Positions 58,532-64,000 of a DNA stretch of 64,000 nt are shown piece after piece. The notes beneath the pieces are model-generated. The model ran no database searches. It had not been told where the DNA came from and was given only the letters and a program-made list of their open reading frames with translations. Position numbers and translations under genes: made by a program. How positions within the stretch are numbered: the stretch's first letter is position 1; each line of letters starts with the position of its first letter. Origin of the DNA: Gemmatimonadaceae bacterium (GTDB taxonomy: Bacteria; Gemmatimonadota; Gemmatimonadetes; Gemmatimonadales; Gemmatimonadaceae); NCBI GenBank assembly GCA_031411975.1, contig JANOCB010000096.1, forward strand, positions 22,971-86,970. The letters are read 5' to 3'.

Positions 58532-58762
58532 ATGCCCAACACCGCTGCCATCGACCGTGGGGGGCCGTGTCCCTTCTGCACCCACCTGTTGCCGCAGGGC
58601 CGCGCCGTGACGTTCTGCCCGCACTGCGGCATGAACGTCACCGTGGCGCAGTGCCCCGCCTGCAGCAGCGAAGTGCAGGCGGGGTGGCACTACTGCGTGA
58701 CCTGCGGGCGCGACGTGAGTGCGATGCCGATCATTCAGGGCACCCTTCCGCGGGAGCCGTAG
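58532..58762 (+). CDS. Double zinc-ribbon protein (76 aa)
   Basis: CPFC…CPHC…CPAC…CVTC: four CxxC pairs. Confidence 0.5.
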   Translation: MPNTAAIDRGGPCPFCTHLLPQGRAVTFCPHCGMNVTVAQCPACSSEVQAGWHYCVTCGRDVSAMPIIQGTLPREP

Positions 58763-58787
58763 CGAGGATCGGGCACCGCCGATTTCT

Positions 58788-58928
58788 CTCACACGGAGGC
58801 ACGGTGCCACGGAGGGATTGCTCGCGGCGCCGCCGGGGTCTTTTCCATGCCATCTCCTCTGAGCGCACGTGCAGCGCGGGAGGTCCCTGCGCAGGGTTCT
58901 GCTCCGTGACTCCGCGCCTCCGTGTGAG
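58788..58928. repeat. Palindromic intergenic repeat element, copy B (REP/MITE-like)
   Basis: CTCACACGGAGGCACGGTGCCACGGAGG … GCGCAGGGTT … CCGTGACTCCGCGCCTCCGTGTGAG. Shares its termini and an internal GCGCAGGGTT block with copy A (22146..22274). Lies between the convergent zinc-ribbon and KAS III genes. Confidence 0.5.
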
Positions 58929-58959
58929 GGGCGTTGTGGCATCCCATGTGCGAACGTGC

Positions 58960-59964
58960 TCAGTACGTGATCGCCGCACCGCCGAGTGAGAGACCGGCGG
59001 CGAGCCCGAACAGCAGCACACGGTCGCCGCGGCGCACGCGTCCCGACGCAATCGATTCGGCCAGGGCGAGCGGCATCGATGCCGCGATGCAGTTGCCACG
59101 GGTGGCGAGGTTCTGAACGATCTGCTCCTCGCGAAAGCCCAGCAGCTTCCAGCCCAGTTCAATGCCGTGACGGCTCGCCTGATGCGGCACCACCGCCGCG
59201 ATGTCGTCACGCTGCCAGCCCGCGTCGGCGCAGAGTGCGTCCATGAACGGCAGCAGCAGCGGCGCCGCCTTGCGGAAGAGTTGCGGGCCCCGCATGGCGA
59301 AGAGGTTGTGCGCGAGCGTGGTGGCCGGATCGTTGGGATGATGCAGCGTTCCGCCACCGCTGATCTGACTCAGCTCGGCGCCGCTGTGCCAGGTCTGCAG
59401 CCGTGTGCAGTGCAACGCGCTCTCCGTGTTGCCGGCATGCGAGACGATCACCGCCGCTGCGGCATCGCCGAACAACACCGCACTTTCGGGCTCGGCAGGG
59501 TTCAGGCTGTGCCCGGCGTTCTCGCTGCTGAACACGAGCACGTGTCGGTGCGCGCCTGCGGCGACGAGCCGCGCGGCCACGTCGAAGGCGGCGAGGAAGG
59601 AGAGACAGGTGGCATTGACGTCGAAACAGGACGCCACCCCTTCCGGTGCACCGAGCTCCCGCTGGACGAAGACGGCGGTGCATGGAATCGCCTGCTGCGG
59701 CGTGCTCGAGGCACCGATGATCGCCGTCAGGTCGCCGGCCGTGAGCCCCGCCATCGCCAGGGCCTCCCGTGCCGCCGACGCGGCCATCACCGACGAACTT
59801 TCACCATCGGCACGACGCCGTTCGCGGACCCCGGTTCGATCGAAGATCCAGCCGGGCGCGAGGCCAAGCTGGGCCTCCAGCTCATCGTTCGTGACGATGC
59901 GTGCCGGCAGATACGCCCCTGCGCCCGAGATGCGCACAGGGAGTGAGGCAGGAGTCATGGTCAT
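58960..59964 (-). CDS. 3-oxoacyl-ACP synthase III-like condensing enzyme (FabH/OleA/DarB-type)
   Basis: Cys-His-Asn triad context (…FDVNATCLSFLAA…, …VVPHQASRHG…, …TRGNCIAASMPLAL…). 334 aa. Confidence 0.8.
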   Translation of the reverse strand: MTMTPASLPVRISGAGAYLPARIVTNDELEAQLGLAPGWIFDRTGVRERRRADGESSSVMAASAAREALAMAGLTAGDLTAIIGASSTPQQAIPCTAVFVQRELGAPEGVASCFDVNATCLSFLAAFDVAARLVAAGAHRHVLVFSSENAGHSLNPAEPESAVLFGDAAAAVIVSHAGNTESALHCTRLQTWHSGAELSQISGGGTLHHPNDPATTLAHNLFAMRGPQLFRKAAPLLLPFMDALCADAGWQRDDIAAVVPHQASRHGIELGWKLLGFREEQIVQNLATRGNCIAASMPLALAESIASGRVRRGDRVLLFGLAAGLSLGGAAITY

Positions 59965-61301
59965 GACGCCTGCAGCTCGCGGGCGGCATCGCGCTTCCAG
60001 CTGCAGACCACCCGGCGCCGCTTCATGCCAGCAGGCAACGGTGCGATGCCGTCGCTCACCATCACCGCGGTCGCATGGCAGCCGTACTCCGCGAGCGACG
60101 AGCGCACGCTCTGCTCGAGCCGGGCTGCGACGTCGCGGAACGACGCCCCCGATCGCACGACCACCTGCAAGGACAGCGCGCCCGGTACCGACTGCTCGGC
60201 GCGATACTCCGCGATCTGCGTATCGGCCAGCAGCACCATGCGTCGGATCGCATCGGGGAACACCGCCCGCAGCGAGTCGTCCGACTGCGGAAACCAGCAG
60301 AGATCATCCTGACGCCCCTCGATTGCGGCGATGCGCTGCCAGGAGGAGCCGCAGGGGCACGGTGCCATGTCGAGCTGGAGGATGTCGCCAAGGCGGTACC
60401 GGATGATCGGCTGCGTGCGACGCCAGAGATCGGTGAGGATCGGGGTCACACGCGAGGGGTCGGCGGCGGACACCGTTTCACGTTGCATCACCATCACATC
60501 CTCCTGCACATGGAGTGATCCGCGGCGGCAGGTCACCGCAACGAGGCCCTCCGTGCACTGATAGACCTCACCGACGGGCACCTGGAACACCTGTTCGAGT
60601 CGGGCGCGGTCATGGGGTTCGATCACCTCGGCCACCGAAACGAGGCGCGTGGGGTGCACGTGCAGCGTGCCATTCTCCCGGGCATCGGCCAGGAGAGCCA
60701 GCAGCGACGGCGGTCCGACGATCAGCCTGGGGCGGAAGGTGTTGAGCGTCGCGATCACCTGGGCGAGGGGCTGCATGAGGTCGAAGAACCGGAACTGCAC
60801 CACGGACGACGTGCGCTCGTACAGTCGGCTGTTGGCACGCAGGAAGAAGGCGACGCGGTGACCGGGGCGAAGGTCGGGAATGGCGCGGGCGAGGATGGTG
60901 CCGGCCCAGCGCGTCTGCTCCTCGGGGCTGACGAGGAAGAGTCCGCGGTGTCCCGACGTGCCGCTGGAAAGCCCGACGGTGCAGCCATCGATGTCGGCGG
61001 AAAAGTCGCGGTCCTGCTCTGCCCGGAGTGCGACTTCCATGGCACGCTCACGCAGAATGCCCCGTGTGTTGAAACGGTCGAAGTGCCGCATCATCAGCGC
61101 CTTGTCCAGCGTCGGGAAGTTGCGCCAGTCGGCGGTGGCGCGACCGGCCCAATGGTCGCGGTGGAAGGGGCTCGTGGCGCGCACGTCGCGCACCAGCTCC
61201 GCCGCACGCCGTTCGTGCCATTCAGCCAGCCGGGTTCCATGCAGCGTGACGGCACGCCATCGCGCCGCGATGTAGTGCGCGGCGATGTCGAGGCGCGTCA
61301 T
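59961..61301 (-). CDS. Adenylate-forming enzyme, coenzyme-F390-synthetase / PaaK / CapK-like
   Basis: P-loop-like GLSSGTSGHRGLFLV and a C-terminal …RYRLGDILQL… of the PaaK/F390-synthetase clade of the ANL superfamily. ATGA overlap with the KAS III start. Confidence 0.6.
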   Translation of the reverse strand: MTRLDIAAHYIAARWRAVTLHGTRLAEWHERRAAELVRDVRATSPFHRDHWAGRATADWRNFPTLDKALMMRHFDRFNTRGILRERAMEVALRAEQDRDFSADIDGCTVGLSSGTSGHRGLFLVSPEEQTRWAGTILARAIPDLRPGHRVAFFLRANSRLYERTSSVVQFRFFDLMQPLAQVIATLNTFRPRLIVGPPSLLALLADARENGTLHVHPTRLVSVAEVIEPHDRARLEQVFQVPVGEVYQCTEGLVAVTCRRGSLHVQEDVMVMQRETVSAADPSRVTPILTDLWRRTQPIIRYRLGDILQLDMAPCPCGSSWQRIAAIEGRQDDLCWFPQSDDSLRAVFPDAIRRMVLLADTQIAEYRAEQSVPGALSLQVVVRSGASFRDVAARLEQSVRSSLAEYGCHATAVMVSDGIAPLPAGMKRRRVVCSWKRDAARELQAS

Positions 61302-61323
61302 TCTTGCATCCCGATCAAGCGGG

Positions 61324-61407
61324 TGATCAAGGGGTCAGACACCATGGTGCCGATCAAGGGGTCAGAGCCCTTGAAAACGCATCGCCCGATCAAGGGGTCA
61401 GACACCT
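61324..61407. repeat. Three spaced copies of a ~20-bp direct repeat in the only intergenic gap of the operon
   Basis: tGATCAAGGGGTCAGACACC (61324), cGATCAAGGGGTCAGAgCCC (61351), cGATCAAGGGGTCAGACACC (61388), plus a partial CGATCAAG at 61312. Spacings are 27 and 37 bp. Confidence 0.5.
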
Positions 61408-62228
61408 TGAACATGCTCCGCCCATGCCAGCGTCTCCGGACAGTGCGTCGGCAGGATCGTGACGTCGGGCCGAGCGCGCGCGAAGTCGCGCAACCCGCGC
61501 AACGTCGTGCGCAGCGCCGGCACATCGTCCTGCATCAGGGCGGTGATCCAGTGCGGCGGACGGAATTCGCGGAACGCCTGCGAGGTCCAGGCGCCATCGG
61601 CGCAGAGCAGCACGTCACCCGAGGCGGTCCGCACCAGGGCACCGATCTGACCGCGGGCGTGACCGGGGAGCGGTACGAGCCGGATGCTGCCGTCGCCCAG
61701 CAGATCGTGCGTGGCGCCGAGATGGGGCAGTGATGCGGCGTCGAAGCCAGTGATCACCTCGGCGCGTTCGCCGAAGTCATCCGGAAAGAGTTGTTGCACG
61801 ATTCCCCGCCGGACGGCGTCGACGCCCCGCGACACTCGTTGCAGCGCGAGTGCCTCGCGGGTGACGACGAAGCGGGCCGATGCGAAGTCGCGAAGCCCGG
61901 CGACATGGTCGGCATGCAGGTGCGACACGATGATCGTGCCCACGGCCTCGGGCTGAACACCAAGCTGCTGGACACCCTCGGCCACCGGGATGCCGACGAT
62001 GGTTGGGGTGGCGTACTTGTAGAGTCGCTCCGGCCACTGCGCAAAGGCGTCGAGCAGTCGCGGGGCGTACCCGGTGTCGAAGAGGATGGCGCCGCGCTGT
62101 GGATGCCGAAGCAGGAAGGCAGGCGCGTGACATCGGACTTCGTCCCAGCCAGTGCCGGTCGCGATGAGCGACGACCGCGCGCTGCAGTACCCAGTATCGA
62201 GCACGTCGAGTTGCATTGTCGGTTTCAT
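61398..62228 (-). CDS. MBL-fold metallo-hydrolase
   Basis: HxHxDH motif (IIVSHLHADHVAGL) plus downstream His/Asp ligands (…PLPGHARGQ…, …LPTHCPET…). Confidence 0.8.
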   Translation of the reverse strand: MKPTMQLDVLDTGYCSARSSLIATGTGWDEVRCHAPAFLLRHPQRGAILFDTGYAPRLLDAFAQWPERLYKYATPTIVGIPVAEGVQQLGVQPEAVGTIIVSHLHADHVAGLRDFASARFVVTREALALQRVSRGVDAVRRGIVQQLFPDDFGERAEVITGFDAASLPHLGATHDLLGDGSIRLVPLPGHARGQIGALVRTASGDVLLCADGAWTSQAFREFRPPHWITALMQDDVPALRTTLRGLRDFARARPDVTILPTHCPETLAWAEHVQGV

Positions 62229-63220
62229 GTTTCGATACTGTCTCGACGAAGCGCATCGATGGTACGCGATACACCATCGGCAGCTGAAACCCGTGGCATG
62301 TAGCCCAGCACGGTGCGGGCCCGACTGATGTCGTAGGTCTGCGTCAGCGCCAGGATCCGGGCCGAATAGCGCGTGAGCGTCGGCTCGCGTCGCGTGACCA
62401 CAGCAACGGACTCCATCACCGCGGCAGCTGCCAGCGCCACCGGCAGCGGGATTCGACGCGACGGATAGGGCAGGCCGACCCCGTGGAGCAGGGCGCGGAT
62501 CATCTCCCAGAGCCTGACATGCTCACCGCCGGTGATCAGGAAGCAGCCGCCGACGCCAGCCTCCGTGTGCAGTGCGCACTCCACCGCCTGCACCACGTCG
62601 TCCACATGGGTCACGTCCACGGCGTTCGTGCCATCACCGATCTGCGGCAGTCGGCCGTCGCGGGCCGCGCGAAGCAAGCGGGGCACGAGGGCGCGATCCC
62701 CATCACCGTAGATCGCCTTCGGACGCAGGATGACCGTTGCCATCCGGCTGGAGGCCGCTGTGACGAGCGCTTCCGCCAGCAGCTTGGTACGGGCGTACTC
62801 GCTGGAATGCCGGCCAGGACAGGGCGCGTCGTCCCCGACATCGTGCTGGTCGCTCCCGGCAAAGATCACGGCCGGCGACGAGATGTGGACCAGTCTTCCG
62901 ACGCGACCTGCGTCTGCAGCGGCAAGCACGTTGGCGGTGCCGGTGACGTTGGCGGCTTCGAAATCGGCCCGCGCACCCCACGGTGCCGACAGGGCGGCGC
63001 AGTGCACGATGGCGTCGCACCCCGCCGCAGCGGCGGTGAGTGCGGCCAGGTCGGTCAGGTCGGCGCGAACGACCTGCACCTCGGGGGCAAACTGCAGCCG
63101 GGAGCGCTCCCGCCCCTGGGCACGGACGGTGAGCCCACGGGCGGCGAGCGTCCTGACGACGTGCCCCCCGAGAAAACCGGAGGCACCGGTAACCAGAACC
63201 GAACGGGGAGGCAGTGTCAC
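62225..63220 (-). CDS. NAD(P)-dependent epimerase/dehydratase (3-beta-hydroxysteroid-dehydrogenase-like extended SDR)
   Basis: VLVTGASGFLGGHVV Rossmann motif and YxxxK (SSEYARTKLLAE). ATGA overlap with the MBL gene. Confidence 0.85.
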   Translation of the reverse strand: MTLPPRSVLVTGASGFLGGHVVRTLAARGLTVRAQGRERSRLQFAPEVQVVRADLTDLAALTAAAAGCDAIVHCAALSAPWGARADFEAANVTGTANVLAAADAGRVGRLVHISSPAVIFAGSDQHDVGDDAPCPGRHSSEYARTKLLAEALVTAASSRMATVILRPKAIYGDGDRALVPRLLRAARDGRLPQIGDGTNAVDVTHVDDVVQAVECALHTEAGVGGCFLITGGEHVRLWEMIRALLHGVGLPYPSRRIPLPVALAAAAVMESVAVVTRREPTLTRYSARILALTQTYDISRARTVLGYMPRVSAADGVSRTIDALRRDSIET

Positions 63221-63251
63221 GACGTGAGTCTACACTCGCGCCCGCCGCAGG

Positions 63252-64000
63252 TCACACGATGCTGCGGCTCAGCCGCTCGAGCGTATGGGCGGCGACGACG
63301 GTGGCCGTGGTCGATCCCCGGGTGCCATCGTGGAGCAGCCGGGAGGCGAACTCGAGCTCGAAAATGGCGAGCAGTGCGTGCAGGGCGCCGCCACCGGTGC
63401 CGTAGCCTTCGAGGCAGGCCTTCCTCGCCTCACGTTCCCAGAGCCATGCGATCTCGAGAGCCTTCTCGTCACCACCGGCATCAACGGCGGCCATCGCCGC
63501 CGACTCGGCAATCGACACCAGCATCCGGGCCACGTCGCGCCAAGGGGATTGCGGCATGACGCGCTCGCGATCGGGCAAGGCGGGGTCTCCATCGAACTCG
63601 ACCACGCACAGCGAGCGCGGTGGTGACATGAGGACGTTGTGGAGACGGAGATTGCCGTGAATCCGGTGGATCAGCCCCGGCGAGCGCTCCGCCGCGGCGC
63701 CGAACTGCTGCAACTTGCCGGGCAGCACATCGAGCGCGTCGAGCAGTGCAGTGCGCTGGTGTTCGCCATGTCGGTAGGCGAGGGAGGCAGCGCTCAACGT
63801 GGACCAGGCCCGTGCCACCCACACTTCCACATCGCCGATGTCTGCGGGAATCGCGCCGGCAATTACCCCTCTGTCGAAGGGCCGTCCGAGCGCGGCGTGC
63901 AACTCCCGCGTCGCGACGCCGACGGCGCGCACGTCATCGAGGGCAACGGCCTGCAGTGAGGGATCGCCCTCGAGAGATCGCCGCAGACGGTGCACGAGGA
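63252..64000 (-). CDS. Aminoglycoside-phosphotransferase-like kinase (APH/choline-kinase fold), N-terminus outside the window
   Basis: Brenner/catalytic-loop motif IHGNLRLHNVL and a downstream …VEFDGD… (DFG-like Mg-binding D). The ORF is open to the window edge. Confidence 0.55.
   Translation of the reverse strand, partial: LVHRLRRSLEGDPSLQAVALDDVRAVGVATRELHAALGRPFDRGVIAGAIPADIGDVEVWVARAWSTLSAASLAYRHGEHQRTALLDALDVLPGKLQQFGAAAERSPGLIHRIHGNLRLHNVLMSPPRSLCVVEFDGDPALPDRERVMPQSPWRDVARMLVSIAESAAMAAVDAGGDEKALEIAWLWEREARKACLEGYGTGGGALHALLAIFELEFASRLLHDGTRGSTTATVVAAHTLERLSRSIV

Follow-up and report, generated by a model that had tools for sequence, protein, structure and literature searches.

In the Ole pathway, four roles are combined: a condensing enzyme (OleA), an NADPH-dependent reductase of β-keto intermediates (OleD), an adenylating enzyme of the ANL type acting as β-lactone synthetase (OleC), and an α/β-hydrolase (OleB), with OleB, OleC, and OleD forming an assembly from which OleA is separate. 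The Pqs route toward alkylquinolones places a ligase (PqsA), a FabH-like condensing enzyme (PqsD), and a metallo-β-lactamase (MBL)-fold hydrolase (PqsE) in one operon; activation by the acid-coenzyme A (CoA) ligase is followed by the FabH-like condensation, and the hydrolase releases the β-keto acid from its thioester. A further type of chemistry is represented by CorB and MxnB of α-pyrone formation in corallopyronin and myxopyronin biosynthesis, which perform a non-decarboxylative chain-to-chain condensation (PMC5506619, PMC5724707). Here, we analyze a stretch of 64,000 nucleotides from a Gemmatimonadaceae bacterium (GenBank assembly GCA_031411975.1, contig JANOCB010000096.1, positions 22,971 to 86,970; in the following referred to as the window), carrying on its minus strand, at 58960-63220, four genes for an OleD-like reductase, a lactonase-like MBL-fold hydrolase, an adenylate-forming enzyme related to F390 synthetase, and a KAS III-type ketosynthase (KAS III, β-ketoacyl-ACP synthase III; ACP, acyl carrier protein). 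All components come from known superfamilies and their logic resembles Ole and Pqs chemistry. Judged by the sequences, we estimate a probability of about one half that the four genes are a self-contained, horizontally mobile biosynthetic cassette, devoid of a carrier protein, which makes a β-hydroxy-acyl lipid-like scaffold.

That the four genes belong together is apparent from their genomic neighborhoods. Loci were retrieved from GTDB species-representative genomes with an alignment of the F390-related proteins, and the best 80 of at least 570 confirmed stretches (at least 600 matched the search pattern) were subsequently compared with the window proteins by tblastn. In approximately 73 of these 80 loci, the genes for the reductase, a member of the short-chain dehydrogenases/reductases (SDR), the MBL hydrolase, and the F390-related enzyme form a contiguous triad on the same strand, and the loci without it are mostly located at contig ends. 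The KAS III gene is found on the cassette strand in 65 of the 80 loci, being placed just upstream of the triad (order KAS-SDR-MBL-F390) in 31 and downstream of it (order SDR-MBL-F390-KAS) in 27 loci. Judging from record titles, carriers of the complete set of four belong to Gemmatimonadota, Chloroflexota, Armatimonadota, Abditibacteriota, Acidobacteriota, Planctomycetota, Deinococcota, Bacillota, Cyanobacteriota, and Pseudomonadota. A linkage of the same four families on one strand in 65 of 80 loci and across ten phyla is far beyond chance, and this confirmed the expectation of an earlier inspection of the sequence (hereafter, the original prediction) that the locus represents a conserved cassette other than housekeeping genes. 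Depending on the enzyme, the catalytic residues are kept in 76-100% of 69-93 orthologues. A looser placement of the KAS III gene was seen in four loci from Acidobacteriota and Planctomycetota (L033, L038, L047, and L049), which follow the diverged order SDR ... KAS-MBL ... F390 with partner proteins of 32-37% identity and extra genes in between, including one for a GT21 glycosyltransferase; L038 additionally hosts a second, partial MBL/F390 copy.

The cassette is also found on mobile elements, i.e., on a conjugative plasmid of Bacillus mycoides, on plasmids of Paraburkholderia and Pontibacillus, and on a plasmid of Ketogulonicigenium, where a bare four-gene operon is adjoined by a TetR regulator. 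In Escherichia coli, an island between narI and purU carries it in 674 out of 5426 complete genomes (~12%, about one in eight), with copies sharing 90-100% identity and all but two of them exceeding 95%. Cultured carriers comprise strains of E. coli, Brevibacillus, Paenibacillus, Herpetosiphon, and Ketogulonicigenium. Metagenome-assembled genomes of Gemmatimonadaceae are closest to the window, and two loci from more distant genomes, lacking the cassette, depict the empty site. L097 shows a maltokinase-like gene beside a divergent thiolase gene, followed directly by the zinc-ribbon gene that borders the cassette in the window; in L096, the thiolase and kinase-like genes are followed by two unannotated open reading frames (ORFs), RNase H, M20 peptidase, and GHMP kinase. 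The cassette is an insertion/deletion polymorphism at approximately 58763-63251 and, as such, a discrete unit. Flanking direct repeats marking a mobile insertion were sought, none of them being convincing. The original prediction had described a five-gene operon including the kinase-like gene. Its conserved core was recovered, its fifth member was not: as L096 and L097 keep the site of the kinase-like gene without the cassette, this gene belongs to the chromosomal backbone as a resident neighbor, leaving a unit of four genes.

The four-gene combination appears to be uncharacterized. In agreement with the original prediction, which had recognized no named pathway, neither a described function nor a pathway name was found in open-access full text (subscription journals being outside the scope), NCBIfam, Pfam, PADLOC, or PDB, and no curated NCBIfam model assigns a function to the four proteins. 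The names given by the Prokaryotic Genome Annotation Pipeline (PGAP) are generic (beta-ketoacyl-ACP synthase III, NAD(P)-dependent oxidoreductase, MBL fold metallo-hydrolase, and F390 synthetase-related protein). Two papers mention a “coenzyme F390 synthetase” gene as table entries only; papers on Ralstonia RSp0194 and on ladderanes were irrelevant to the cassette. An anti-phage defense system was considered as well and dropped, since PADLOC gave no match for any of the five proteins (0/5 at E ≤ 0.001).

The ketosynthase matches Pfam ACP_syn_III and ACP_syn_III_C. It had been placed in the role of OleA, an assignment that did not withstand comparison with solved structures: scores of 229 bits for CorB and 228 bits for MxnB are followed by 112-176 bits for FabH, 90 bits for PqsD, and 62-67 bits for OleA, and no OleA model was among the NCBIfam matches of the window proteins. 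OleA, PpyS, and NocG need a glutamate base to deprotonate a plain acyl chain (E117 in Xanthomonas campestris OleA, E105 in PpyS, and E100 in NocG; PMC9486936). At this position, all 69 cassette ketosynthases carry Ile, Val, or Leu. Based on the low OleA scores and the missing glutamate base, the enzyme is not OleA-like. With CorB and MxnB it aligns end to end at 39-40% identity, in comparison to ~35% for FabH, and both share with it an insertion relative to FabH; the orthologues from five other lineages showed the same pattern of identities. The C120/H261/N291 triad is invariant (69/69). The enzyme resembles FabH in fold and length, in its catalytic triad, and in the HQA that includes the catalytic His; further positions (I/V93, S264, C292, and I293) match CorB and MxnB, resulting in an aliphatic residue (Ile) in place of Phe87 of FabH, HQxS for HQAN, and NCI for NTS. 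The cassette enzyme differs from CorB and MxnB in having A263 in place of their Pro266, HQA or HQG being found in 69 and HQP in none of the 69 cassette ketosynthases. The authors of the CorB study link this proline at the tip of helix α5 to the non-decarboxylative chemistry (PMC5506619). A rough neighbor-joining tree, which was calculated without support values and from reference sequences rebuilt from alignment printouts, places CorB and MxnB beside the two main clades of cassette ketosynthases and apart from two outgroup FabH sequences. The genomic context differs as well, CorB and MxnB being parts of large trans-acyltransferase polyketide synthase (PKS) clusters and taking carrier-protein-bound chains, whereas the cassette contains neither a PKS nor an ACP.

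The reductase was assigned to Pfam Epimerase (132 bits) and 3Beta_HSD (115 bits), and its best NCBIfam match is OleD (NF042422). OleD was found to be the best curated match, over the full length, in all six lineages compared (the window, E. coli, B. mycoides, Herpetosiphon, Scytonema, and Ketogulonicigenium), with 146-246 bits. The residues G12xxG15xxG18, R37, S114, Y142, and K146 are kept in 76-82 of 82 orthologues. Among solved structures, a decarboxylating sterol-4-α-carboxylate 3-dehydrogenase comes nearest; like OleD, it handles β-keto or β-hydroxy acid motifs. An OleD role had been suggested for this protein; the homology stands, yet the scores stay below the equivalog cut-off in all six lineages, which makes the SDR a homologue rather than a demonstrated orthologue.

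As predicted originally, the hydrolase has the MBL fold (Pfam Lactamase_B, 52.9 bits) instead of being an α/β-hydrolase such as OleB. Its best NCBIfam matches are the N-acyl-homoserine lactone (AHL) lactonases AttM, AidB, and AiiA together with 4-pyridoxolactonase (42-85 bits), and AHL lactonases are also its best solved structures. Four out of five lineages tested gave a lactonase as best match, the MBL of Ketogulonicigenium being without an NCBIfam match at 1e-10. The HxHxDH motif of these lactonases and every ligand of their di-zinc site (H103, H105, D107, H108, H190, D211, and H262) are kept in 85-86 of 86 orthologues. A difference to the AHL lactonases is seen three residues after D211, which probably corresponds to the position of the catalytic Tyr194 of AiiA: here, 80 of the 86 orthologues carry Trp (W214 in the window) and four carry Tyr.

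The adenylating enzyme is a clear member of TIGR02304 “F390 synthetase-related protein” (384.2 bits, cut-off 251.9), so that its earlier placement in the PaaK/F390 clade, and not with the OleC-type ANL enzymes, was correct. Pfam AMP-binding reached 23 bits and thereby missed its gathering score (29.9), and OleC was not matched. For coenzyme F390 synthetase (FtsA, TIGR03335) the score was as low as 20 bits with a cut-off of 458.7, which indicates that the F390-synthetase name reflects distant homology only. The family name of TIGR02304 denotes homology without an assigned function. At E ≤ 1e-30, this family counts 513 representatives, each standing for a 50%-identity cluster. The closest solved structures, at 42-51 bits, are PaaK-type ligases, AjiA1, and the “PaaK-like ligase” chain 6siw. 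The motifs S112-S-G-T-S-G-x-R-G, Y247-Q-C-T-E-G, D306, G329-R-x-D-D, and K427 are kept. Furthermore, C258, C315, and C317 (encoded within 60345-60530 of the window) are invariant in 92 of 93 orthologues, C249 within YQCTEG is kept in 84 of 93, and PCxCG forms a conserved motif. These cysteines may constitute a metal site or an acyl-thioester site; we know of no such site in PaaK-type ligases.

Combining these assignments, a four-step route can be proposed. The F390-related enzyme would adenylate a carboxylic acid and pass it to a thiol, either of CoA or of the ketosynthase cysteine; its adenylation motifs are intact, and substrate and acceptor are inferred. KAS III would load the acyl group on Cys120 and form one Claisen C-C bond, yielding a β-keto thioester. 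The nucleophile of this step could be malonyl, condensed decarboxylatively as by FabH, or a second, β-keto-activated chain as used by CorB and MxnB, and we regard both as about equally probable. In analogy to PqsE in quinolone synthesis, the lactonase-like MBL would cleave the thioester, or a lactone derived from it, and thereby release the product. Finally, the OleD-like SDR would reduce the β-keto to the β-hydroxy acid with NADPH, as suggested by its full-length homology to OleD and by Arg37, Ser114, Tyr142, and Lys146. The last two steps could proceed in either order, and adenylation could stand at the beginning (starter activation) or at the end (product activation). Read in this way, each enzyme has a distinct, non-futile role.

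A product of this type is also consistent with the genes accompanying the cassette in other lineages. The scan covered 116 ORFs inside or directly beside these cassettes. Glycosyltransferases of the GT1 type (15) accompanied by ketoreductase-type SDRs (12) are found mainly in Chloroflexia, ATP-grasp ligases (9) together with FemAB-like GNAT proteins (3) and an EamA exporter in Bacillota, and an ATP-grasp and GNAT pair on the Paraburkholderia plasmid; GT21-type glycosyltransferases (5) are among the adjacent genes, too, and exporters of the EamA and ABC types occur near cassettes. Neither in these 116 ORFs nor in the large flanking ORFs were genes for ACP, PP-binding, PKS, or nonribosomal peptide synthetase (NRPS) proteins detected, the large flanking ORFs of some loci encoding TPR or WD40 proteins or proteins without a known domain. 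This accessory pattern suggests a hydrophobic scaffold, bearing a free hydroxyl and/or carboxyl group, which is decorated differently in each lineage: GT1 or GT21 enzymes would glycosylate it, the ATP-grasp and FemAB-like GNAT enzymes would modify it in other carriers, and in E. coli this task would fall to a PAP2 phosphatase together with a fatty-acid hydroxylase and a desaturase. The window, like Ketogulonicigenium, contains the core four genes only. The E. coli island consists of seven genes (L090 4170-11051, NZ_CP141085.1), in which those for KAS III, SDR, MBL, and the F390-related enzyme are followed by PAP2_3, FA_hydroxylase, and FA_desaturase genes, a trio of membrane enzymes resembling tailoring enzymes of sphingolipids or ornithine lipids. 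A relation to the long-chain 1,2-diol glycolipids of Chloroflexota and of Thermus/Meiothermus would be speculative and is not claimed.

Several observations weigh against the proposed route. All of its chemistry is derived from family-level homology, with SDR, MBL, and KAS III scoring below equivalog cut-offs: the SDR reaches 246 bits over residues 8-323 in the OleD model, less than half of the cut-off of 580, the MBL has 85 bits as its best lactonase score in comparison to a cut-off of 390, and KAS III scores 313.6 bits with PRK07204, where 402 are required. The closest characterized relatives of the ketosynthase join two chains into a pyrone instead of extending a starter. PqsE is not among the solved-structure matches of the MBL, which resembles lactonases instead, and the parallel to the Pqs route is further limited by the 90 bits of PqsD, by PqsA being an ANL ligase, and by the lack of an OleD-like reductase in that route. 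In at least three loci with full flanks (L005, L066, and L073) the triad is present and no KAS III gene lies within 6-8 kb; the triad may therefore act on a β-keto or hydroxy acid that is supplied in another way. Finally, a single common scaffold is an assumption, as the accessory genes vary widely between lineages.

The chain-joining chemistry of CorB and MxnB gives room to a different route along the lines of the original prediction, in which KAS III would join two chains head to head to a 2-alkyl-3-keto acid, the SDR would reduce it, the F390-related enzyme would adenylate the resulting β-hydroxy acid and close a β-lactone in the role of OleC, and the MBL would process this lactone in the role of OleB. 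The product would be a β-lactone, an olefin, or a mycolic-acid-like 2-alkyl-3-hydroxy lipid, and the cassette would represent a phylum-spanning, previously unrecognized route parallel to Ole. The likeness to Ole is substantial in that four roles of matching chemical type are present (thiolase-superfamily condensing enzyme, NADPH-dependent β-keto reductase, ATP-dependent adenylating enzyme, and hydrolase). The reductase is a true homologue of OleD, aligned end to end in six lineages with OleD as its best curated match, and the enzymes to which the MBL is closest are openers of lactone rings. In addition, the three non-condensing genes are tightly linked and the position of the condensing gene varies, an arrangement paralleled by the OleBCD assembly and its separate OleA. 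However, three of the four enzymes are of another kind than in Ole: the condensing enzyme is not OleA, given its 62-67 bits and the aliphatic residue in place of the glutamate base (69/69), the adenylating enzyme belongs to the PaaK/F390 clade instead of being an OleC-type β-lactone synthetase, and the hydrolase shows the MBL fold with HxHxDH, no α/β-hydrolase being encoded inside the cassette. The fourth, the SDR, scores far below the OleD cut-off. The HQP proline of CorB and MxnB is absent from the cassette ketosynthases, and hydrolysis of a β-lactone by the MBL would merely regenerate the hydroxy acid in a futile cycle. We therefore rate formation of chain-joined lipids or β-lactones by such an Ole-parallel route as unlikely, still being the first alternative to consider.

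A CorB/MxnB-like KAS III could also fuse an acyl and a β-ketoacyl chain from fatty acid synthesis into a 4-hydroxy-α-pyrone, with the adenylating enzyme supplying a chain and the SDR and MBL altering or opening a ring of the pseudopyronine or photopyrone type. This would be in line with CorB and MxnB as top solved relatives, the end-to-end alignment and insertion shared with them, the agreement at I/V93, S264, C292, and I293, their position next to the cassette clades in the tree, and the lactonase-like MBL. However, the identity to both is only 39-40%, compared with 35% to FabH, the HQP signature is missing, the tree carries the restrictions mentioned above, and the PKS and carrier-protein context of the cor and mxn clusters is lacking. 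Moreover, PpyS and PyrS form pyrones on their own, without needing a reductase, ligase, or hydrolase (PMC4578411). We regard a pyrone or lactone product as improbable.

Read in the reverse direction, the genes could constitute a catabolic module for lactones or hydroxy acids: the MBL would open a lactone, the F390-related enzyme would make the CoA ester, the SDR would oxidize the hydroxyl to the ketone, and the thiolase-superfamily enzyme would cleave or rearrange the resulting β-keto thioester. The lactonase-like MBL fits this direction, PaaK-type ligases are classic catabolic CoA ligases, a TetR regulator adjoins the Ketogulonicigenium cassette, and in L005 genes for two CoA-transferase subunits and an AMP-binding acyl-CoA synthetase come after the triad, taking the place of KAS III. 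On the other hand, the accessory genes are of a biosynthetic and export character (glycosyltransferases, ATP-grasp ligase, FemAB-like GNAT, EamA and ABC exporters), uptake or β-oxidation genes are not consistently linked, and KAS III enzymes are known as a family to condense and not to act thiolytically. Degradation is thus, in our view, a poor explanation of the cassette. A housekeeping FabH lying by chance beside unrelated genes, for which one could quote that PRK09352 (“beta-ketoacyl-ACP synthase 3” subfamily) is passed by 3 bits (251.9, cut-off 249) and that PGAP calls the orthologues beta-ketoacyl-ACP synthase III, is effectively refuted by the synteny data, i.e., the four-gene linkage over ten phyla, the location outside a fab cluster with an accessory, mobile, and patchy occurrence (plasmids, 12% of complete E. 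coli genomes, all E. coli carrying fabH elsewhere), and the absence from the empty-site relatives L096 and L097. The score for the fabH equivalog TIGR00747 is likewise too low (227.8 bits, cut-off 292.1).

In the window, the gene calls agreed with the five minus-strand ORFs of the original prediction, and the Pfam and NCBIfam assignments agreed with its family labels for all five, the kinase-like match being weak. The features of the locus, which is situated in DNA of high GC content (65-70%), are listed in Table 1.

Table 1. Features of the cassette and its borders (positions refer to the window)
Feature	Position	Strand	Remark
Maltokinase-like ORF, C-terminal 249 codons, cut by the window edge	63252-64000	-	outside the cassette
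OleD-like extended-SDR/3β-hydroxysteroid dehydrogenase (3-beta-HSD)-family NAD(P)H reductase, 331 aa	62225-63220	-	first cassette gene
MBL-fold di-metal hydrolase, lactonase-like, 276 aa	61398-62228	-	Pfam Lactamase_B
Intergenic spacer of 96 nt, holding three direct repeats of TCTGACCCCTTGATC	61302-61397	-	MBL/F390 junction
F390-synthetase-related adenylate-forming enzyme, PaaK/F390 clade, 446 aa	59961-61301	-	TIGR02304
KAS III-type ketosynthase, CorB/MxnB-related non-housekeeping subfamily, 334 aa	58960-59964	-	last cassette gene
Double-zinc-ribbon gene, 76 aa, convergent, boundary marker	58532-58762	+	Pfam DZR 39.6 bits

Overlaps of the ATGA type had been predicted at three junctions. Two were found, each of 4 nt, between the SDR and MBL genes (62225-62228) and between the F390-related and KAS III genes (59961-59964), while gaps separate the MBL from the F390-related gene (96 nt) and the kinase-like ORF from the SDR start (31 nt). 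The spacer causing the larger gap contains exact copies of TCTGACCCCTTGATC at 61325-61339, 61352-61366, and 61388-61402 (chance expectation 0.11), the third one running on into the MBL gene at its 3' end; no further copy occurs within the 64 kb window. Around this exact core of 15 nt, the repeat units extend to up to 22-36 nt with spacings of 27 and 36 nt (61302-61409), and a weak terminator-like hairpin (61383-61404) overlaps them. Other Gemmatimonadaceae loci have neither spacer nor repeats; there, the MBL and F390 genes abut or overlap, as seen by the overlapping junction in L095, L012, and L013, with L095 possessing all three 4-nt overlaps. Consequently, the spacer is regarded as a lineage-specific insertion. 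As to the repeats themselves, a small insertion, an array for protein binding, and a repeat element are all conceivable. A scan for promoters and terminators revealed nothing exceeding the shuffled background.

At the downstream end, the zinc-ribbon gene follows the cassette in L001, L003, and L095 as well. Beyond it, the window encodes a protein without a Pfam match, RNase H, M20 peptidase, and GHMP kinase, none of which look cassette-related. The convergent gap between the KAS III stop and the zinc-ribbon gene contains an inverted repeat (58788-58928) with 27-nt arms of 89% complementarity and 87 nt between them, which might terminate transcription in both directions or represent a small repeat element.

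At the upstream end, the original prediction had added a small-molecule kinase and hence a possible phosphorylated metabolite. The sequence of this protein is not in favor of such a function: the ORF in the window scores 61 bits with TIGR02457, and maltokinase-type model scores of the kinase-like proteins range from 61 to 70 bits, in both cases with a cut-off of 375. Exact matches of the window's F390-related protein were confined to two short contigs (3.7 and 5.7 kb); the full-length gene was taken from L003 (6592-8046), a locus 78-80% identical to the window, and encodes 484 aa without a Pfam match. In four out of four aligned orthologues, 71-80% identical to the window copy, the catalytic HGD is changed to HGN and the metal-binding DFE to EFD. 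A direct alignment with the maltokinase structures 5jy7 and 4o7o confirms that these positions correspond to their HGD and DFE, so that both catalytic aspartates are replaced. The members of this maltokinase-like family of ~480 aa are probably pseudokinases or enzymes whose chemistry has changed. It comprises 86 proteins, every source name being Gemmatimonadaceae, and its gene adjoins the divergent thiolase gene in every locus examined. At least 25 contigs appear to carry both the kinase-like gene and the cassette, and in L012 and L013 it is not found upstream of the cassette. In the empty-site loci, the gene keeps its place. The co-occurrence reflects a conserved insertion site and not a function; co-transcription with the cassette is possible.

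As a mobile unit, the cassette has reached at least ten phyla, conjugative plasmids, and about one eighth of the complete E. coli genomes, among them isolates from human infections. Should its product be a new lipid or signaling molecule, this would add a pathway of carrier-protein-free Claisen chemistry, would provide a function for the TIGR02304 family with its 513 representatives, and would explain a strain-variable E. coli island beside lipid-modifying genes. If the route parallel to Ole applies instead, the products would serve as aglycones, namely of glycolipids in Chloroflexota and other phyla and of a further membrane lipid in ~12% of complete E. coli genomes. Being carried by E. coli and further cultured strains, the cassette is open to direct testing.

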